The notes under the pieces were generated by a model. It was not told the origin of the DNA. It saw only the letters and a list, made by a program, of their open reading frames with translations, and ran no database searches. Positions 6,049-53,415 of a stretch of 64,000 bases of DNA are shown here, piece after piece; the stretch's first letter is position 1; the number at the start of each line of letters is the position of its first letter. The stretch is from the NCBI GenBank assembly GCA_963666095.2, contig OY762557.1, forward strand, positions 333,567-397,566, given 5' to 3'. The DNA is from Longimicrobiales bacterium. GTDB lineage: Bacteria; Gemmatimonadota; Gemmatimonadetes; Longimicrobiales; Gaopeijiaceae. A program made the position numbers and the translations under genes.

Positions 6049-6927
6049 CTACAGCTCCCCGGAGCGGTACGCGACCACCAGGACGCTCCGTTCGTCTTCC
6101 TCGTCCCGGCCGATGTTCAGGGTCAGCTCGCGCGTCTCGTCCTCCCACGCCGAGGCCTCGATGCTCGCCCGCTCCACGACGCCCTTGCGCAGTCTGGCGA
6201 AGCTGAACCTCGTCACGTGGCCGTCGAGCGCCTCCTTGTACCATTCGAAGATCCTCTCCGGCGCCGCGTCGCTCTCGAAGACGGCCCCGCCCACGGAACC
6301 CCCGTCGATGCGGGCCGAGAACTGCCGCCTGTCCAGCTCGGCGCCGGGGTAGACCGGCACCCACTCCGGAAGCGCCGACGAACCGCTTCCCGCCCCGAAG
6401 CGCACCTCGTGGTCCGGCGTCGAGATGTCGAGGAAGCCGCCGTCCTCGCCGCCGCGCAGCTCCACGGTGGTCCGTCCGGACTCGGTGTCCACGCGCAGGA
6501 TCCCCCCGCTCCTCCCGGCCTCGCCGTCGAACCGCACGCTCGGGTCGGCGGCCTCCTGTTCGGCGTCGGCGGCCTCCCGTTCCGGGCCGGCGGCCTTCCG
6601 GTCCGCGTTCGAGAGCTTCGAGACGTCCACCGTGACCAGCTCGCCGCCGGCGCCGACGCGCAGGACGACCTCGCCCTCGTTCTCGTCCGCGCTCACTACG
6701 GTGACGTCGGTCCCGAGCCTGTCCATCATCTTTCCGAGGGTCGCGGCGGGCTCCTCGGCGAAGTCGCCGATCTCGTCCGAGATCCTCTTCGCGACCGCCA
6801 GCCCGATCACCACCATGACCGCGACCAGCGCGACGAAGAGGCCGCCCACGATCAGGGCCACCCTGCCGAAGGTCGACAGGCCGCTCGACCGGGCGTGACG
6901 CGTTGCTTCCCTGTACGGATCCGACAT
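6049..6927 (-). CDS. hypothetical membrane-anchored protein
   Basis: ORF 6049..6927. ATG 6927 is preceded by GGGAGGAAGAGG. One TM helix (LIVGGLFVALVAVMVVIGLAV) is followed by an acidic soluble domain. It ends 7 nt upstream of the M29-like gene. Confidence 0.7.
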   Translation of the reverse strand: MSDPYREATRHARSSGLSTFGRVALIVGGLFVALVAVMVVIGLAVAKRISDEIGDFAEEPAATLGKMMDRLGTDVTVVSADENEGEVVLRVGAGGELVTVDVSKLSNADRKAAGPEREAADAEQEAADPSVRFDGEAGRSGGILRVDTESGRTTVELRGGEDGGFLDISTPDHEVRFGAGSGSSALPEWVPVYPGAELDRRQFSARIDGGSVGGAVFESDAAPERIFEWYKEALDGHVTRFSFARLRKGVVERASIEASAWEDETRELTLNIGRDEEDERSVLVVAYRSGEL

Positions 6928-7140
6928 CCTCTTCCTCCCTTGGGCTCATGGGGGGTTTGCGCTCGACGACTTGCGTCCCCCACCCTACGCCTCCGGGGGC
7001 CGGCGGTTTCACCGTGGTCCCATGCCCGCGGGGCCCGGCGGGGCGCCCGGCGGGGCGTCCCTTGCGGAGGGGCGGCGGCTCCTTCCTCTTGGTGGACCAC
7101 GACTTCCTGGTCGTGCTCGACCTGCGCGAACCGGAGCGCC

Positions 7141-8091
7141 ATGTCTACCGAACCCTCTGCACGTGAGACTCGACCGCGCGGGACGGGAGTTCCGGCGGGC
7201 AGACCGGCCGTTCGCGGCCATGAAGGTTCCACCGGGGATCGCGACGCGGGACCCGCGCCGCCCCATGTGCCGCCGGGCAGATGGCCGGTGGTCGCGGCCC
7301 GGGGACTGGGGGTCCTCTTCTGGACCGCCGCCATGGCCGCCGCGCTGCTCGCGCGGTGGCTGCCGACACTGGTCCGGCCGGGCTCCGGCGCCGCCCCAAG
7401 GGCCAAGGCGAGGAGGCGGGTGGTCCAAGCCTGGGGACGCGGACTGGCGCGCCTCGCCGGCGTGCGGGTCGCCACCCACGGGGACGCGCCGCCGCCCGGG
7501 ACCCTCGTCGTCTCCAACCACCTGGGCTATCTGGACATACCGGTGCTCGACTCCGTCATGCCGATGGTGTTCGTGGCCAGGGCCGACCTGCGCCGCTGGC
7601 CCTTCTGGGGGTTCATGGCCACGCTGGGCGGCACCATCTACGTCGATCGGGCGACCAAGCGCGACGTGATGCGGGTGCGCCGCGAGATGGGCGAAGCAAT
7701 GGCGCTCGGGGACAGCGTGATCGTGTTCCCCGAGGCCACCAGCTCGGCGGGCGACACGATCCTGCCCTTCAAGCCCGCGCTGCTGGCGGACGCCGCCGCG
7801 CAGGGCGCCCCCGTGCACTGGCTCACCCTGACCTACCGCACCCCGTCGGACGGCCCCGCCGCGCGCGACCGGGTTTGCTGGTGGGGGGACGCGGACTTCC
7901 TCCCCCATGTCCTCGCGCTCTTCGCGCTCAGGCGGGTGGACTGCGACGTGCGCTTCGGCGACGTCCCCGCCCGGTCCGCGGACCGCAAGGCGCTGGCCGT
8001 CGATCTGCGGCGCGCGATGCTGCGGGACTTCGAGCCGGTCGCGCGGGGGGAGGCGCGGCGGAACCCCGATGCTCCCCGAAAGGCCGGCTGA
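7141..8091 (+). CDS. plsC: 1-acyl-sn-glycerol-3-phosphate acyltransferase family protein
   Basis: Tail of ORF 5530..8091 from ATG 7141. It has the acyltransferase motifs SNHLGYLD (NHxxxxD) and FPEATSS. A later in-frame start is possible. Confidence 0.75.
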   Translation: MSTEPSARETRPRGTGVPAGRPAVRGHEGSTGDRDAGPAPPHVPPGRWPVVAARGLGVLFWTAAMAAALLARWLPTLVRPGSGAAPRAKARRRVVQAWGRGLARLAGVRVATHGDAPPPGTLVVSNHLGYLDIPVLDSVMPMVFVARADLRRWPFWGFMATLGGTIYVDRATKRDVMRVRREMGEAMALGDSVIVFPEATSSAGDTILPFKPALLADAAAQGAPVHWLTLTYRTPSDGPAARDRVCWWGDADFLPHVLALFALRRVDCDVRFGDVPARSADRKALAVDLRRAMLRDFEPVARGEARRNPDAPRKAG

Positions 8092-8093
8092 CC

Positions 8094-8678
8094 GTGGCCT
8101 GGATCCGGGAAATCCCGCGCGAGGAGGCCACGGGTCTCCTCCGGCGCGAGCTGGACGCGGCCGTGAAGCGGTCGGGCAGGGTTTGGAACATCGTCCAGGC
8201 GATGAGCCTCAACGCGCCGGTGCTGAAGGCGGCGATGGCCCACTACGCGGCCATCATGTTCGGCCCGTCCCCCCTGTCGCGCTTCCAGAGGGAGCTGCTG
8301 GCCACCGTGGTCTCGGCCGAGCTGGACTGCTTCTACTGAACGCAGGCGCACGCGCATGACCTCCGGGCCGAGGTCGAGGCGATGGGGACGGGCGGGGAGG
8401 AGGGGGACGCGCTGGTCCACCGGATCGTGGCCGACTGGCGCAAGGCCGGTCTGTCCCGGGAAGACCGGGCGCTGTGCCGGTTCGCCCTCAGGCTGACGCG
8501 GAGCCCCGCCGACATGTCCCCGGAGGACCTGGACCGGCTGCGGGCCGCCGGGTTCAACGACCGCGGCATCCACGACGCCACGCAGGCGGTCGGCTTCTTC
8601 AACTACATCACGCGCGTCGCGGAGGCGCTGGGGGTGGAGCCCGAGGCGTTCATCGACGAGTGGGGGCGGATGGACTGA
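8094..8678 (+). CDS. carboxymuconolactone decarboxylase/AhpD-like peroxidase-related protein, putative selenoprotein (TGA 8337-8339 read as Sec)
   Basis: GTG 8094 (VAWIREIPREEATG...VVSAELDCFY) and ORF 8382..8678 share one frame and are separated only by TGA 8337-8339. The stop falls in C-F-Y-[TGA]-T-Q-A-H, the C-x-x-C-x-x-x-H redox motif of this family. Confidence 0.7.
8351..8381 (+). promoter_or_regulatory. putative bacterial SECIS hairpin
   Basis: Starts 11 nt after the TGA. Lower stem is CGC 8351-8353 with GCG 8379-8381. Upper stem is GACCTC 8358-8363 with GAGGTC 8370-8375. The apical loop is the G-rich 6-nt CGGGCC. Confidence 0.5.
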
Positions 8679-8859
8679 GGGGGACCGCGTCACCCCCCTG
8701 GCCCTGTGACCATCGCTCCGAGACGCTTCCGGGCGCCCGCAACCGATCCGCGCGAACCCCTCCGGGACTGGACGGGAGCCCCTCTTTCGTCGTACCTTGC
8801 GGCTGTCGGGAGCACGGGCGGCCCCGTGGCGCACGAAACCACCAAGGAGCAGAGTGGAA

Positions 8860-9300
8860 ATGACAGGACAGGGCGGAAGGCGGATCAGGGTCACCATGCG
8901 GTGGCTGCAGATTCTGGACAACCTGGAACCCTTCTTCAAGGAGAAGGGCGAGTTCGTATTCTGGGCGAAGGTCGCCACCGACAACCACGGCGGTCAGGTC
9001 CAGGAGACGCGGATGCCGTCCAAGGGGCACTACTCCATATCGGACCGCCCGCGCTGGAACCGGCTCAAGGACCTGGACAAGGTGCTCTTCGAGGGCGAGG
9101 TGACCGACCACCTGTCGATCGAGCTTCGCGGCGAGGAGCTGGACAAGTTCAGCGCGAACGACCAGCTGGACAGATACCAACGCACCTTCACGGGACCGAT
9201 CGAGGACCACATCGCCGTCATCCAGCCCGGCGACGAGGGCTCCGACGATCCGGAGAACATGTCCAACTGGCGGATCGGCTACGAGATCGAAGCCGTCTGA
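8860..9300 (+). CDS. hypothetical protein (no family recognised)
   Basis: Part of ORF 8797..9300. ATG 8860 lies 10 nt after AAGGAG (8844-8849). Composition is balanced (MTGQGGRRIRVTMRWLQILDNLEPFFKEKGEFVFWAKV...) and GC is visibly lower than in the neighbouring genes. Confidence 0.65.
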   Translation: MTGQGGRRIRVTMRWLQILDNLEPFFKEKGEFVFWAKVATDNHGGQVQETRMPSKGHYSISDRPRWNRLKDLDKVLFEGEVTDHLSIELRGEELDKFSANDQLDRYQRTFTGPIEDHIAVIQPGDEGSDDPENMSNWRIGYEIEAV

Positions 9301-9322
9301 AGGACGCGGGCCCCGCGGCCGG

Positions 9323-9437
9323 CGCGACCTGACATGCCCGCGGGAGAGGCGGTCGAGATCCCCGATCCGGCGGCCAGGGACGCCCCCCGCCTCGCCTCGC
9401 GACCTGACATGCGCGTAGGAGAGCCGGTCGGGACCCC
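9323..9437. repeat. imperfect ~41-bp direct repeat (two copies, 75-bp period) in a convergent intergenic region
   Basis: Copy 1 (9323-9363) is cgcgacctgacatgcccgcgggagaggcggtcgagatcccc. Copy 2 (9398-9437) is cgcgacctgacatgcgcgtaggagagccggtcgggacccc. About 35 of 41 positions are identical. Confidence 0.7.
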
Positions 9438-13245: not shown

Positions 13246-15582
13246 TCACCCCCCCGCCAGCCGCCACACCTGCGCCACCAGGAAGCACACCACGAACCCC
13301 ATCACGAGCGGCAGCAGCGCGGACAGCGTCGTCCACCTTCCGCTCCCCGTCTCCTTGTAGATCGTGTAGATCGTGGTGGAGCACGGATTGTGGAGCAGGC
13401 TGAACAGCATGAGGTTCACGCCCGTCAGCAACTCCCAGCCCCCGGCGGCGAGGAGCCCCTCCACCTCCCCCGCCGAGCCCCGCTCGAACATGACGCCCGC
13501 CCCCTCGCCCAGCGACGGGTCGCCCAGCGCGACCACGGTCAGCATCAGCACGGTCGGGATCACGATCTCGTTGGCGGGGATCGCGATCACGTACGCGAGC
13601 AGGATCACCCCGTTCAGCCCCAGCAGGATTCCGAACGGGTCGAGCAGGCCGATCCCGTGCTCGGCCAGCGACGCGCCGCCCACCGAGATGTTCGAGAGCA
13701 GCCAGATGACCGCGCCGGCGGGGACCGCGAAGAGGACCGCACGCCAGAGGATGATCAGGGTGCGGTCGATGACCGAGGTGTAGAGGGTCTGCAGGACGCG
13801 CGGGGGGCGGTATGGGGGGAGCTCCAGCGAGAAGGTGGTGGCCTCGCCCTTCAGCACCGTGCGGGAGAGCCCCCACGAGGTGATGAACATGAAGACGATG
13901 CCCAGCAGCGCGATCCCGACGACGGCCCCGGCCGCGACCGCGCCCGCGAGGTGGGGCGGCGCCAGCGCGCCGATGAAGATGGTCGCGATCAGGATCTGGG
14001 TGGGCCAGCGCCCGTTGCACAGCGAGAAGTTGTTCGTGATGACCGCGATGAGGCGCTCCCTGGGACTGTCGATCACGCGCGTGGCGACCACCCCGGCGGC
14101 GTTGCAGCCGAATCCCATGCTCATGGTGAGCGCCTGCTTGCCGTGCGCGCCCGCCCGACGGAAGAGCGAATCCAGGTTGAAGGCGACGCGCGGCAGGTAG
14201 CCAAAGTCTTCGAGCAGGGTGAAGAGGGGGAAGAAGATGGCCATGGGGGGAAGCATGACGCTCACCACCCAGGCGGTCGCGAGGTAGACGCCGTCGAAGA
14301 GGAAGCCGCTGAGCCACCAGGGCATTCGCGCCCACTCGCCGAAGGTGCCCAGGGCGGGGTGCACGTTGTCCAGCAGAAGGGTCGCCAGCATCGCCGACGG
14401 CACGTTGGCGCCCGAGATGGTGAGCCAGAACACGACCGCGAGGACGCCCAGCATGAGGGGGAAGCCGAAGACGCGGCTGGTCAGCCAGCGGTCGAGCCTG
14501 CGGTCCCATTCCGGGCCCGCCTTCCCGATGCCCGTGAGCACGCACCTGTCCGCGATCCGCGTCGCCTCGCGGTGGAGGTTCTCGGCCAGGGCGTCGTGGA
14601 AGCCGGGCCTCAGCTTCCAGCGATGACGGGTCGCCGCCCGTAGTATGCGGGCGCGGCCCCGGGGGGCCGTGGAGAGAACCGCCCGCGGAGTCCCGGGGCC
14701 GTCGTCGAGGGTACGTGGCGAACCGCCCGCTCGACCGGCCGCCTCGCCGACCCCCTCTCCTCCCACCGCCTTCCGCCCCGCCCCGCCCGGCCCGGGGGCG
14801 CCGTTGCCGCCCAGCTGCCCGATCTCGCCCGTGCGCACGGCCTCGGTCACCCGCTCGTCGGCGTTGAGCAGCCTGAGCGCCACCCAGCGCGCGTTGGGCA
14901 GCTCCGGGAACTCGTCGGCCACCAGCGGGGCGATGGCGTCCACCGCCTCCTCGACCGCCGCGGGGTGCGATTCGATGCGGTGCGGACGGGTCCTCCGCAC
15001 CCCCGTGGCCACCTCGACGGCCGCCCCGAGCAGCGCGTCGATCCCCTCCCTGCGGCGCGCCACGGCCGGGACCACCGGCACCCCCAGCTCGCGCTCCAGC
15101 CGCCTCGCGTCCACCGAGACGCCGTGCCGCCGGGCCTCGTCGACCAGGTTGAGGCAGACGACCACCCGGTCGGTGATCTCCAGGATCTGGAGCACGAGGT
15201 TGAGGTTGCGCTCCAGGCGGGTCGCGTCCACCACCACGACCGTCACGTCCGGCTGCCCGAAGAGGATGAAGTCGCGCGCGACCTCCTCGTCGGCGCTCCC
15301 GGCGTGCAGCGAGTAGGTGCCGGGCAGGTCGACCACCTTGACGCGGCGGCCGTCGTGCAGGAACGCGCCCTCGGCCCGGGCGACGGTCTTGCCGGGCCAG
15401 TTGCCCGTGTGCTGGCGGAGACCGGTCAGGGCATTGAAGACGGTGGTCTTGCCGACGTTGGGATTGCCGGCCAGCGCGACCAGGTGGTCCCAGCGGTGCG
15501 GGCTCAGGCCCAGGCGGACCAGGTTGCTCGCGCGCTGCGGGGAGCGCGACGCGTGGGCGGCGGCGGGAGCGCCGGGGCTCAC
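13246..15582 (-). CDS. feoB: ferrous iron transporter FeoB
   Basis: Tail of ORF 13246..16269. It has the G-domain [16 protein letters not shown] and DLPGTYSL, followed by a polytopic membrane domain. GTG 15582 overlaps the TGA of the upstream gene (GTGA). Confidence 0.85.
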
Positions 15583-16616
15583 GACGCCTTCCTTTCGGCC
15601 CCGTCGACGATGTCCACCCTGATGTGTGCGGCCTGCTCGCGGCGAAGGGCGACCAGCGCGCCGCGGATGTCGTAGGCGACCGGATCGCCGGCCGCGCTGC
15701 GCATGCGGGCGTGGATCGTCGTTCCCGGCACCACGCCGAGATCCAGGAGGCGGCGGCGCGCGGGGCCGCGGCACGCCGGCGCGATCCCCGCCACCGTCGC
15801 CGAGTCCCCCGGCCGGACTTCGGCCAGCGTCCGCGTCGCACCGGCCTCGACCGCCTCCGCGGAGGGCTCCACAGTCACGTTGCGGGCCAGCGCGCTGGAG
15901 ATCTCGTAGCGTTCCTCGCCGCTCCGGAAGCGCACCCGGCCCGCGTCTCCGTCCAGCCGCTCCACAGGCGTCATGAGCCCCAGACCGAGGCCCACGAGCT
16001 CGCGGTAGATCTCTTCGGGTTCGTCTTCGAGGTGGGTGATCACGGCGCGCTCGCCGGGTTCGAGCGACGAGAGCGGCACGCCGGCGCGGGCGGGCATCTC
16101 GCCCTCGGCGGTCGGGATGGGGTCGCCGTGGGGATCGTAGACCGGGTGGCCCAGCGCGGCGGCCAGATCGTCCGCGTCCGCGGCCGACAGGAGGTGCTCG
16201 CGCGTCTCGGCCTGACCGTGCCAGTCCTCGGGGGGCGTGGCGGTGCGGTCGGCCAGGAAGCGCTCCCACAGCCGGTGCGTGCGCACGATGTGCAGGGCCT
16301 GGGCGCGGCCGGAATCGGTGAGGCGGAACCGGACGCCGTCCCCCGACACGAGCCTCCTCTCCTCCAGTCGCTGCAGCAGCCGGATGGCCTGGGCCCGCGA
16401 GACCTGGACGCCGCCGGCCACGCTGTCCGCGGTGGCGGGCAGGCGGTCGTATTCCAGCTTGTAGAGCTGCTTTAGCACGTCCTCCATGCGGACGCGTTCG
16501 GTGACGCGGGCGATTCGGCGCAGCCGGGGGGCGATTCCGCCGCCGGGCCAGAACACGGCCGCGCAGAGGGCCGCGAGCGCGAAGAAGACCAGCAGCGCGA
16601 AGGCGGGGTCGGGCAT
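15579..16616 (-). CDS. DtxR/MntR-family metalloregulator fused to two FeoA domains, with an N-terminal hydrophobic helix
   Basis: ORF 15579..16616. N-terminal [19 protein letters not shown] is followed by a DtxR-like HTH and dimerisation region (HRLWERFL...[12 protein letters not shown]). Two FeoA/SH3-like segments follow ([12 protein letters not shown]...; [12 protein letters not shown]...GVVPGTTI...). Confidence 0.8.
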
Positions 16617-44681: not shown

Positions 44682-46625
44682 TCACAGCAGCGCGTTCGCC
44701 GTCCACGCGCCCACGTACGCCAGGGTCAGCATGTAGCAGAACTGCAGGGCCGGCCACCGCCACCCCCCCGTCTCGCGGCGCATCACGGCCACCGTGGACA
44801 TGCACTGCAGCGCGAAGACGAAGAAGATCAGCAGCGCCACCGCGGCCCCCAGGTCCAGGTCCCGCTGCAGCGCGGCCCGCAGCTCGAAGTCCTGGTCGTC
44901 CTGCGTCTCGACGCCGTAGATCGTGCCCAGCGTGCCCACGATCACCTCTCTGGCCGCCAGACTCGTCACGAGACCGATCCCCACGCGCCAATCGAAGCCG
45001 AGCGGCTCGATCGCCGGCTCGACGACCTGCCCCATGCGGCCGAGCGCGCTGTCGCCGATCTCGGGCGGCGCCCCGGCCGGCGTCCTCGGGAACTGGGCCA
45101 GGATCCACAGCGCGACGGTCACGGCCAGGATGATCTTGCCGGCCCGCCGCAGGAAGATCTTCGTGCGGTCCAGCAGCCGCGCCGCGATCGAGCGGGCGCT
45201 GGGCCACCGATAGGGCGGCAGCTCCAGGACGAAGGGCATCGACCGGCCGCGCAGAAGCGTGCTCTTCAGGAGCGCCGCCGTCCCGACCGCCGCGAGCAGT
45301 CCCAGCGCGTACAGGCCGATCAGCACCGCCGTGCGGCGTCCCAGGAACGGTCCGAGCAGCGGCCCCGCGGGGATGAAGGCCGCGATGAGCAGCGCATAGA
45401 CCGGCAGCCGCGCCGAACAGGTCATGAACGGCGCGATGAACACGGTGGCGATGCGGTCCCGCTCGTCCTCGACGGTGCGCGCGGACATGATCGCGGGGAT
45501 CGCGCAGGCGTAGGCGGACAGCAGCGGCAGGAACGACTTCCCCTGCAGCCCCACCCGGTGCATGAGGCGGTCCGCGATCACCGCAGCGCGGGCCATGTAG
45601 CCGGAGTCCTCCAGTATCGCGATGAAGAAGAAGAGAATGAGGATCTGCGGAAGGAAGACGAGCACCGACCCCACCCCGGCCCAGACCCCGTCGATCAGCA
45701 GGGCGCGGAACCAGGAGTCGGGCAGGGCGGCCGCCAGGTACCGGCCCGAGGCGCCGATCAGGGACTCGGTCCCGTCCATGAGGGGCACGGCCCAGGCGAA
45801 GATGGCCTGGAAGACCAGTCCCACCACCACCGCGAAGACGAGCGGACCCCACAGACGGTGCAGCACGACGGCATCGAGCCGGTTCGTGAAGCGCGATGGC
45901 CGCGGGGCCCGGAACCCGGCCGAACGCCCCAGCTCGCGGGCGCGCTCGCGCCGGGCGGCGAAGACGTCGATCACGGGCAGCGGGCGCCCCGACGGGTGGC
46001 CCTCGAGGTTGTCCGCGGCGGCCACGATCGGACACGCGCGGACCTCCTCGCCCCCCGTGTGGAGAGCGGCGAGGAAGCGTCGCACCGGTTCGAGGGCGCC
46101 GGCGTCCCGGGCGTTGACCAGCGCCACCTCGACGCCCAGGTCCCGCGACAGCCGGGCACTCTTCAGCGCGCCGTCGCGGCGGTCCAGCTCGTCGGCCATG
46201 GTGAGGACGACCAGGGTCGGCAGGCCGAGTCCCAGCACCGGCTCCGCGACCATCAGGTGGGACCGCAGACGGGTCGCGTCGAGAACCAGCACGATCGCGT
46301 CGGGTCGTCGATCGCTCTCCAGCTCGCCGAGCAGCGCGTTGCGGGTGATCCTCTGATCGGCGCTGCGGGGCGAGAGGCCGTGCACGCCGGGAAGATCGAT
46401 CACCTCGACCGGGCCGGCGTCCGAATCGGCCACGCCGGATCGGCGTTCGACCGTGACCCCCGGGTAGTTGGCGACCTTCTGGCGCAGTCCCGTCAGGTTG
46501 TTGAAGAGGGTGGACTTCCCCGAATTCGGGGGACCGACCAGTGCGACCAGCGGGTCGCCGGGGTCCGTCGCGGTTCCTTCGGCCGTCTCCGTCCGCAACG
46601 CGACGGACGCGCCAGCCGCGATCAA
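44682..46625 (-). CDS. feoB: ferrous iron transporter FeoB (second copy)
   Basis: ORF 44682..46772 with GPPNSGKSTLFNNLTG, DLPGVHGL and a membrane domain. TTG 46625 overlaps the feoA TGA (TTGA), but the start is uncertain. Confidence 0.8.
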   Translation of the reverse strand: MIAAGASVALRTETAEGTATDPGDPLVALVGPPNSGKSTLFNNLTGLRQKVANYPGVTVERRSGVADSDAGPVEVIDLPGVHGLSPRSADQRITRNALLGELESDRRPDAIVLVLDATRLRSHLMVAEPVLGLGLPTLVVLTMADELDRRDGALKSARLSRDLGVEVALVNARDAGALEPVRRFLAALHTGGEEVRACPIVAAADNLEGHPSGRPLPVIDVFAARRERARELGRSAGFRAPRPSRFTNRLDAVVLHRLWGPLVFAVVVGLVFQAIFAWAVPLMDGTESLIGASGRYLAAALPDSWFRALLIDGVWAGVGSVLVFLPQILILFFFIAILEDSGYMARAAVIADRLMHRVGLQGKSFLPLLSAYACAIPAIMSARTVEDERDRIATVFIAPFMTCSARLPVYALLIAAFIPAGPLLGPFLGRRTAVLIGLYALGLLAAVGTAALLKSTLLRGRSMPFVLELPPYRWPSARSIAARLLDRTKIFLRRAGKIILAVTVALWILAQFPRTPAGAPPEIGDSALGRMGQVVEPAIEPLGFDWRVGIGLVTSLAAREVIVGTLGTIYGVETQDDQDFELRAALQRDLDLGAAVALLIFFVFALQCMSTVAVMRRETGGWRWPALQFCYMLTLAYVGAWTANALL

Positions 46626-46939
46626 TTCGATTCGAGAACCCCCGCGGCCTCCAGTGCGCTTCGCACGCAAAGACAGGACGCGGTCTCTCTCCGGAGCGCC
46701 ACGAGTGCGCCGTCCACTCGATAGACGGTCGGGCCCCCCGCGGGCGCGTGCCGGACCGGACACAGCTTGCACCCCGGCACGATGCCCTGCTCCAGCAACG
46801 GCACGACATCGTCGCCGGCCACGTCCATCCGCACCAGGATGACCTCCTCTTCCAGGGGGACGTCGGCGAGGACGCGCAGGGGCACATCCCTCTGCGAATC
46901 GTCGGTGCGCCGAGTGGCGGGTTCTTCTTTCCTTTTCAC
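46622..46939 (-). CDS. feoA: FeoA-family protein
   Basis: ORF 46622..46939 (GTG start) has the FeoA-like core PLRVLADVPLEEEVILVRMD...LLEQGIVPGCKL...[21 protein letters not shown]. Confidence 0.7.
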   Translation of the reverse strand: MKRKEEPATRRTDDSQRDVPLRVLADVPLEEEVILVRMDVAGDDVVPLLEQGIVPGCKLCPVRHAPAGGPTVYRVDGALVALRRETASCLCVRSALEAAGVLESN

Positions 46940-52746: not shown

Positions 52747-53415
52747 TCAGGCCGACGCCCGCTTCGCGGACTGGTCCAGGAAGAGGTGCTCCTCCAGGAA
52801 GCGAAGGCGCACATCCAACTGGCGGAACCCCTCGTTCATCTCGGTCTTCATACCGGCAACGCTGGTCCGCGTCTCGGCCCGAAACTCCGCCATGTCCTCC
52901 CGGAACTCCCCGCGAAGTGCGACCAACTCGCCCTTGAACTCCGTGCGCAATCCGGCGATTTCGCCGCGAAGGACTGTGAATTCCGCGCCGAAGTCCCCGC
53001 GCAAAGACGCGATTTCGTCCCGAAGCCCTGCGATTTCGGTCCGCATCTCCTCGCGGAGACCCCCGATCTCGGTTCGCACCGCGGCGATTTCGGTCCGCAT
53101 CTCCTCCCGAAGACCTCCGATTTCGGTCCGCATCTCCTCCCGAAGACCTCCGATCTCGGTCCGCATCTGCTCGCGGAGACCCCCGATCTCGGTTCGCACC
53201 GCGGCGATCTCGGTCCGCATCTCCTCGCGGAGACCACCGATCTCGGTCCGCACCGCGGCGATCTCGGTCCGCATCTCCTCGCGGAGACCTGCAAGGTCAT
53301 TCCGGGTGTCCGCCCGCAACGTTCGCATCTCCCGACGCAGCACGCTGCTCATCCGCCAGTGGAGCCCCGCCAAGGCCACCCCGACTCCCAGGATCGCGAT
53401 GAGCTCCGCGCTCAC
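52747..53415 (-). CDS. membrane-anchored coiled-coil protein built from 11- and 7-residue repeats
   Basis: ORF 52747..53550, trimmed to GTG 53415 ((M)SAELIAILGVGVALAGLHW). The body is EMRTEIAAVRTEIGGLRE / EMRTEIGGLRE modules. A different start is possible. Confidence 0.65.
   Translation of the reverse strand: MSAELIAILGVGVALAGLHWRMSSVLRREMRTLRADTRNDLAGLREEMRTEIAAVRTEIGGLREEMRTEIAAVRTEIGGLREQMRTEIGGLREEMRTEIGGLREEMRTEIAAVRTEIGGLREEMRTEIAGLRDEIASLRGDFGAEFTVLRGEIAGLRTEFKGELVALRGEFREDMAEFRAETRTSVAGMKTEMNEGFRQLDVRLRFLEEHLFLDQSAKRASA
52900..53310 (-). repeat. in-frame tandem coding repeats (33-nt and 21-nt modules)
   Basis: On the plus strand, gatttcggtccgcatctcctc(c/g)c(g/g)a(a/g)gacc(t/c)cc alternates with gatctcggt(t/c)cgcaccgcggc across roughly 53040-53290. 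More diverged copies flank this core. Confidence 0.8.

Follow-up and report, generated by a model that had tools for sequence, protein, structure and literature searches.

We examined a 64,000-nucleotide stretch of DNA from a Longimicrobiales bacterium (Gemmatimonadota; assembly GCA_963666095.2, contig OY762557.1, positions 333,567 to 397,566 of the forward strand), hereafter the window, at a locus where an in-frame TGA interrupts a gene related to the peroxidase AhpD. With a probability that we put at roughly 0.9, positions 8094-8678 of the window form one gene for a 194-residue AhpD-like (TIGR01926/COG2128) selenoprotein, whose internal TGA is read as selenocysteine (Sec) and is followed by a functional selenocysteine insertion sequence (SECIS). 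The gene and its active site comprise the following features:

8094-8678, forward strand: coding sequence of the predicted AhpD-like selenoprotein, 194 residues, GTG start, Sec as residue 82, true stop TGA at 8676-8678
8337-8339, forward strand: UGA codon predicted to be read as Sec (U82), the second redox residue of C79-F-Y-U82
8292-8351, forward strand: active-site segment E67-X11-C79-F-Y81-U82-X3-H86, with E67 at 8292-8294, C79 at 8328-8330, Y81 at 8334-8336 and H86 at 8349-8351

Translation of 8094-8678 yields 195 codons with one internal stop (TGA 8337-8339, in the motif D-C-F-Y-*-T-Q-A-H) and the terminal TGA at 8676-8678, and the list of open reading frames (ORFs) divides the locus into the tail of 7281..8339 and a separate ORF at 8382..8678. 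Across all six frames on both strands of the 64 kb, the TGA at 8337 is the only one with at least 50 open, coding-like codons on each side. The window has a G+C content of 71.6%, and the G+C fraction at third codon positions, 0.96 in 8094-8339 and 0.98 in 8382-8678, is typical of real genes in the window on both sides of the TGA. The 50 complete predicted genes of the window end in TGA (31) or TAG (19); therefore, TGA is a normal stop codon in this organism, and genetic codes 4 and 25 are excluded. The N-terminus of the homologues (M-P/A-W-I) coincides with the GTG at 8094, and the upstream acyltransferase gene ends at 8091 in another frame, which together argue for a 194-residue product without an N-terminal extension. 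The ratio of nonsynonymous to synonymous substitution rates (dN/dS) against eight relatives (L001-L008) is 0.05-0.28 for the N-terminal and 0.30-0.57 for the C-terminal half, values below 1 that indicate purifying selection on both halves flanking the TGA. The codons of His86 and His88, right after the UGA, show almost exclusively synonymous changes (CAC to CAT), and this, together with the selection on both halves, points to translation that runs on through the UGA.

The redox motif and its conservation

With Cys written for the TGA, the joined protein matches the NCBIfam profile TIGR01926 ('peroxidase-related enzyme') at 126 bits (cutoff 81.8) over residues 4-183, which correspond to profile positions 3-175 of 178, and it also matches the Pfam CMD family. 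Among proteins in the PDB, the COG2128-type entries 2PFX, 6K40, 3C1L, 2OYO and 2PRR are recovered with expectation (E) values from 4e-25 to 6e-14 and align with residues 21-185; these are Cys forms of the same length and fold family, of which 2PFX and 6K40 (deposited as 'Alkyl hydroperoxide reductase AhpD'; E of about 1e-25 to 1e-23) place CFYC and CVYC, respectively, against C-F-Y-[TGA]. The canonical AhpD core domain TIGR00778 (ahpD_dom) stays below its cutoff (20.5 bits versus 27.8). So does NF041238 (AhpD_rel_CFYUT; alkylhydroperoxidase-related (seleno)protein, the 'hypothetical protein 1' of the Sargasso set), which scores 65.2 bits versus a cutoff of 175 and matches only at profile positions 151-337. 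That family shares C-F-Y-U-T and the AhpD-like core with the window protein, but its members have about 357 residues, of which about 150 form an additional N-terminal region that the window protein lacks; the latter is not a member. Judged by sequence, the protein belongs to the TIGR01926/COG2128 CxxU family at every test applied and falls outside the related NF041238.

E67, C79, Y81 and H86 are invariant in our protein alignment (A1), and the spacing of E67, C79, U82 and H86 is exactly that of the AhpD proton-relay pattern E-X11-C-X-X-C/U-X3-H. The proton-relay set consists of Glu118/Cys130/His132/Cys133/His137 in Mycobacterium tuberculosis AhpD and of Glu36/Cys48/Tyr50/Cys51/His55 in PA0269 (PMC3141380). 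Both of these proteins (PDB 1KNC/1GU9 and 2O4D) share the E-X11-C-X-X-C-X3-H signature with the window protein, and in PA0269, as here, a Tyr precedes the second redox position; they are otherwise only distantly related to it in sequence (E = 0.007 for 2O4D) and have Cys where it has Sec. In M. tuberculosis AhpD, the second Cys (Cys133) is exposed and forms the cross-link to AhpC (PMC6626918). Sec82 sits at its position; AhpC is a candidate type of partner for the window protein.

One genome per GTDB species was scanned, which gave 587 relatives of the gene; the best 80 of these were fetched and, with the window gene, make up a set of 81. TGA occupies the homologous codon in 80/80 of the fetched relatives (81/81 with the window gene), which come from Gemmatimonadota, Chloroflexota, Planctomycetota, Actinomycetota, Acidobacteriota, Latescibacterota and one metagenome-assembled genome (MAG) of Gammaproteobacteria. 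A protein search returned four groups: full-length relatives with 53-65% identity that display W at the critical column (G in P0004), N-terminal fragments terminating in C-x-Y, C-terminal fragments beginning at about Q-A-H-A-H, and 185-residue relatives with 37-45% identity that feature C-x-Y-C. The C-x-Y-C of the last group aligns with C-F-Y-[TGA] (P0010, P0011, P0016, P0034 and P0040), and in the three Cys-form genes that we examined, the critical Cys is encoded by TGC. The DNA behind P0001 (L081:276-905) reveals that its W is a TGA translated with code 4, and that the true stop, a second TGA, was also read through; the database entry hence shows Trp in place of Sec and ends in 19 spurious residues, as is probably the case in P0002, P0003 and P0005-P0007.

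The initial annotation had read the two ORFs as one gene in a single frame with TGA 8337-8339 as its sole internal stop, assigned it to the AhpD/CMD peroxidase-related family, placed the TGA at the second Cys of C-x-x-C-x-x-x-H and expected gene callers to split or truncate the locus. The translation and the TIGR01926 score bear out the single gene, that score and the Pfam CMD match the family, and the C-x-Y-C homologues and the two aligned structures the position of the TGA. The ORF list does split the locus, and public protein sets do hold stubs and chimeric translations. It had also considered that the homologues might be two independent proteins ending and beginning at the TGA; they are not, as all 80 have the TGA in frame, with conservation on both sides.

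Several entries of this set deserve mention in their own right. For the glycine of P0004, a code-25 translation of TGA was considered and rejected, as the DNA has a real GGA codon. A JGI metagenome contig (Ga0673046_0316153, L082:649-651) displays GGA (Gly) at the Sec codon with the hairpin GAUCUC-CGGGCC-GAGGUC kept, which is either a recent change from Sec to Gly, expected to abolish the activity of the site, or a mistake in a short contig from a single sample. Two MAG contigs titled 'uncultured Klebsiella sp.' (L050 and L051) have the motif EMLATVTSSVNHCLY*RRSHAHDLR at the Sec codon and hairpin of their AhpD-like genes, as do L043 and L047, which are Roseiflexaceae MAGs; an almost identical motif surrounds the Sec codon and hairpin of L060 and L063. 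Judged by this motif, the Klebsiella label looks like a taxonomic mis-assignment.

The hairpin downstream of the TGA

The segment that follows the TGA contains these features:

8358-8375, forward strand: predicted conserved SECIS core, with 5' arm GACCUC (8358-8363), loop C-G-G-G-C-C (8364-8369) and 3' arm GAGGUC (8370-8375)
8357-8376, forward strand: U8357-G8376, an optional seventh pair that closes the stem; 66 of 77 distinct sequences have a standard pair here
8351-8381, forward strand: lower stem CGC (8351-8353)/GCG (8379-8381), present in the minimum-energy fold of the window sequence and not conserved

We compared this segment in an ungapped alignment of the 48 nt from the TGA onward (A2; 77 distinct sequences), in which columns 22-27 and 34-39 correspond to 8358-8363 and 8370-8375. 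The upper stem is paired in 100% of the cells (462/462), and several of its pairs change while pairing is retained: one C-G pair becomes U-A in six sequences and U-G in two, another C-G becomes U-A once, and a third pair goes from G-C to G-U eight times. When the 3' partner is slid by 1-3 columns, only 20-46% of the cells pair, and 0 of 500 column shuffles match the observed pairing or covariation score. The CGC/GCG lower stem, considered as a further conserved feature, was rejected, since it is paired in only 38.5% of the cells across the homologues.

The codons that make up the hairpin are restricted to particular synonyms. Leu90 is CTC in 80/80 genes, versus about 31% CTC, with 5-6 codons in use, at eight other conserved Leu columns. 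Arg91 is CGT in 43 genes and CGG in 38, with CGC in 0/81, versus about 49% CGC at seven other conserved Arg columns. Similarly, GAA encodes Glu93 in 1/81 genes (GAG in 80/81), versus about 33% at other conserved Glu columns, and Val94 is only GTC or GTT (GTG in 0/73), versus about 41% GTG at other conserved Val columns. As the hairpin codons are thus fixed at synonymous sites of a kind that is free to vary in other parts of these genes, the selection acts on the RNA and not on the protein.

The bacterial SECIS model of bSECISearch, as summarised in PMC13188914, has a loop of 3-9 nt and an upper stem of 4-16 bp, a G within the first two loop positions that is usually followed by G or U, a UGA-to-loop distance of 16-37 nt and a minimum free energy of at most -7.5 kcal/mol. 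The element described here lies within the model on every count: its loop has 6 nt and its stem 6 bp (7 with U8357-G8376), the distance from the UGA to the loop is 24 nt (8340-8363) and invariant in A2, and the 24-nt core folds at -9.6 kcal/mol (-16.1 kcal/mol for the 48 nt). The family consensus of the loop is C-G-[G/U]-G-N-H, with G at the second position in 81/81 genes and G (38) or U (43), never C or A, at the third, so that the restriction of Arg91 to CGG and CGT matches the rule of G followed by G or U.

The SECIS hairpin proposed in the initial annotation therefore holds for the GACCUC/GAGGUC stem, which is paired in 77/77 distinct sequences. Its extension by the CGC/GCG stem, which begins 11 nt after the TGA, does not, that stem being specific to the window sequence. 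In Escherichia coli fdhF, 11 nt separate the UGA from the upper stem-loop, which contains a bulged U, and a lower helix starts at the UGA itself. The resemblance to fdhF spacing that had been claimed fails, as the stem at +11 is the one that is not conserved; in the conserved element, 18 nt lie between the UGA and the stem and 24 nt between the UGA and the loop, and there is neither a conserved bulge nor a conserved lower helix. What the two elements do share is a hairpin within the coding sequence downstream of the UGA and a 6-nt loop with G and G/U as its second and third bases. In the folding check that had been suggested, both the upper and the CGC/GCG stem are present in the minimum-energy fold of 8337-8384, and the energy is not better than that of shuffled sequences (z of -0.24 for the 48 nt).

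Decoding, function and rival explanations

To what is documented above, namely the structure of the gene, its membership of the family, the pairing of Sec with Cys and the selection acting on its hairpin, we add a proposal for how the gene works. During translation, SelB carrying Sec-tRNA(Sec) would bind the hairpin at 8358-8375 and deliver selenocysteine at the UGA at 8337-8339 in place of termination; we infer this SelB-dependent decoding from the match to the bacterial SECIS model and the selection at the nucleotide level. The product is predicted to be an all-helical thiol/selenol oxidoreductase with the redox pair C79-x-x-U82, supported by E67, Y81 and H86. Sec82, which takes the place that the exposed, attacking Cys133 has in M. 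tuberculosis AhpD, would carry out the attack on an oxidised partner (e.g., a hydroperoxide or a peroxiredoxin-type protein). Resolution by C79 would give a selenenylsulfide, and a cellular reductant would then reduce the latter again. This redox chemistry is likewise a prediction.

A link between the family and the Sec system is seen in a Planctomycetaceae MAG (L078), where a selB gene (L078:3758-5734, forward strand; TIGR00475 at 327.6 bits, cutoff 242) begins 182 nt downstream of the TGA-containing AhpD-like gene (L078:3001-3576). As selB adjoins the gene there, the AhpD-like family is tied to the Sec system in at least one lineage; L078 also provides a case of a selenoprotein gene clustered with its own decoding factor. 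In a tblastn search of the 80 loci, SelB was the sole probe with a match, in L078 only, and ARAGORN found no tRNA near the AhpD-like gene in the 60 loci scanned.

Several observations weigh against a selenoprotein at this locus. The arms of the hairpin encode a conserved peptide, D-L-R-x-E-V, so that part of the conserved pairing follows from the conservation of the protein; the synonymous-site comparison addresses this point, in sequences that are phylogenetically related to one another. Taken by itself, the window sequence folds no better than its shuffles (z of -0.24 for the 48 nt and -1.7 for the 24-nt core), and as this fold is not exceptional, the evidence for the hairpin comes from the comparison of relatives. 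The three Cys-form genes with TGC at the aligned codon share no common hairpin there, a small control of only three sequences. No Rfam family was matched in 8000-8800 at E values up to 10 or in the whole window at gathering thresholds. With respect to the decoding machinery, no tRNA gene, and hence no tRNA-Sec, was found in the 64-kb window, and tblastn with E. coli SelA, SelB and SelD probes had no match in it. The match in L078 validates the SelB probe; the SelA and SelD probes matched neither the window nor the 80 loci and lack such validation, so that their negative result carries little weight. The tRNA, Rfam and tblastn searches thus agree with the initial annotation that selA, selB, selC and selD are absent from the window, with weak probes for SelA and SelD, and literature searches found no statement on the Sec trait in Gemmatimonadota. 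A capacity for Sec decoding in the source organism is therefore something that we infer from the gene itself. Finally, when the ORFs flanking the gene in the 80 loci were clustered, no neighbour conserved across phyla emerged that would suggest a partner. The large clusters that this analysis did return appeared to be artefacts of the AhpD-like gene itself and its antisense frame.

Among the competing explanations, one grants that the hairpin drives read-through of the UGA and denies that Sec is inserted: Cys or Trp would be supplied by a near-cognate or suppressor tRNA in an organism that lacks the Sec pathway. The absence of detected Sec machinery from the window is compatible with this, and the GGA codon of L082, with its hairpin kept, indicates that the codon position can change. 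Against it, the G of the loop is followed by G or U, as the SelB-type rule demands (CGC in 0/81 genes), and a generic stimulator of read-through would not need such a rule; selB is adjacent to the gene in L078; the family is catalogued as a Sec family (PMC13188914); and the TGA persists in 81/81 genes, where one substitution (to TGC or TGT) would suffice to yield Cys. We regard this explanation as improbable, and give equally little credence to its variant in which a widely transferred module of UGA and hairpin is decoded otherwise in a Sec-less genome (e.g., by hairpin-stimulated insertion of Cys or Trp). It is more likely that a nearly invariant SECIS (GACCUC-CGKGNH-GAGGUC) travelled with the gene across at least six phyla and that this RNA signal fixed the D-L-R-x-E-V peptide, which distinguishes the Sec from the Cys clade.

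The remaining explanations dispense with recoding of the UGA as Sec altogether. A pseudogene with a nonsense mutation, or a pair of small genes (8094-8339 and 8382-8678), is what standard ORF calling delivers, and the many N-terminal (ending in C-x-Y) and C-terminal (from about Q-A-H-A-H) fragments in databases would seem to agree. This reading is already contradicted by the data and very improbable: the same TGA is present in 81/81 genes from at least six phyla, both halves are under purifying selection, His86 and the stretch of residues 83-95, which lies between the TGA and the first downstream ATG, are conserved, and full-length Cys homologues and crystal structures cross the junction. The idea that an error of sequencing or assembly turned a TGC or TGT into this TGA has nothing specific to the window in its favour and is scarcely credible, given that the same TGA occurs in 80 independent assemblies and that the Sec-clade A-H-A-H-D-L-R-x-E-V and the hairpin are both present in the closest relatives and both missing from the three Cys-form homologues examined. 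An alternative code with TGA as a sense codon (code 4 or 25) might be read from the W at this position in P0001-P0003 and P0005-P0007. In P0001, the one checked, however, the W is a gene-caller artefact of a TGA in the DNA, and the stop-codon usage of the window, with 31/50 complete predicted genes ending in TGA, already contradicts such a code, as does the occurrence of only one in-frame TGA within coding-like sequence of the window; we consider it next to impossible. The preferred explanation thus remains a single selenoprotein gene with Sec inserted at the UGA.

Relation to known selenoproteins and genomic context

The CxxU AhpD-like class is already known, as had been pointed out at the outset. 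Such COG2128 selenoproteins were reported from the Sargasso Sea in 2005 as 'AhpD-like protein' (27 sequences; PMC1088965), and 'AhpD-like 1' (COG2128, CxxU) was the fourth most abundant selenoprotein family in the 2008 Global Ocean Sampling survey (299 sequences; PMC2398784). A 2026 review lists 'AhpD-like protein, TIGR01926, CxxU' (PMC13188914), and BSepDB has a family page for the AhpD-like selenoprotein (PMC13326102). The window protein belongs to the same profile family and shares the CxxU motif with Sec as its second redox residue, the organisation as a single Sec protein of about 190 residues and a SECIS within the coding sequence just after the UGA. It differs from the family in nothing essential: the family was first described from marine surface plankton, and the window copy comes from a high-GC (72%) member of the Longimicrobiales (Gemmatimonadota).

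It is thus an ordinary member of a long-known family and opens no new biological question. Its main value is for annotation, as standard gene callers split or truncate the AhpD-like selenoprotein gene, and public protein sets hold it in faulty forms, namely N-terminal stubs, C-terminal stubs and chimeras with Trp at the Sec position. The family-specific SECIS consensus, backed by the synonymous sites, could serve for finding and joining such genes automatically. The gene also makes it likely that its source organism uses selenocysteine, and it extends the catalogued family by an example from the Longimicrobiales/Gemmatimonadota.

One further feature lies directly upstream:

7222-8091, forward strand: acyltransferase gene (Pfam PF01553, 65 bits), start uncertain, in a different frame from the selenoprotein gene

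The best NCBIfam match of this gene is a lyso-ornithine-lipid acyltransferase, below cutoff. Its stop lies 2 nt before the GTG at 8094, a gap that makes co-transcription with the selenoprotein gene probable. The flanking genes encode an M29-like peptidase, a protein without an assigned family, the acyltransferase, a 148-residue protein, SufE and a PA0069-type radical SAM protein, and they are syntenic with those of Gemmatimonadota/Longimicrobiales MAGs (L001-L005), with up to 91% amino-acid identity (L003, on the complete Longimicrobiales chromosome OZ244837.1). This synteny assigns the window to the same lineage. In the window and in L003 (L003:2253-2981), the acyltransferase gene directly precedes the selenoprotein gene, and in L001 (L001:3647-4429) it follows it, a shift that, by gene order, is a local rearrangement within an otherwise syntenic block. 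As no neighbour is conserved across phyla, this context gives no clue to a redox partner. A scan of 6900-9400 for promoters and terminators found none.

Between the selenoprotein gene and SufE, the 148-residue ORF (8854-9300, forward strand) has no Pfam or NCBIfam match and is 82-91% identical in L001-L003, a conservation at least equal to that of the other flanking genes compared. Elsewhere in the window, a 222-residue protein (52747-53415, reverse strand) consists mostly of tandem repeats of the form G-L-R-E-E-M-R-T-E-I-(A-A-V-R-T-E-I); in Pfam it matches coiled-coil or filament-type families exclusively, with some of these matches above cutoff and others below. Two separate loci of FeoB-like ferrous-iron transporters (13246-16616 and 44682-46939, both on the reverse strand) were recognised by eye from the translations; one of them adjoins a DtxR/FeoA-like regulator, and the other has a small FeoA-like ORF, also seen by eye.

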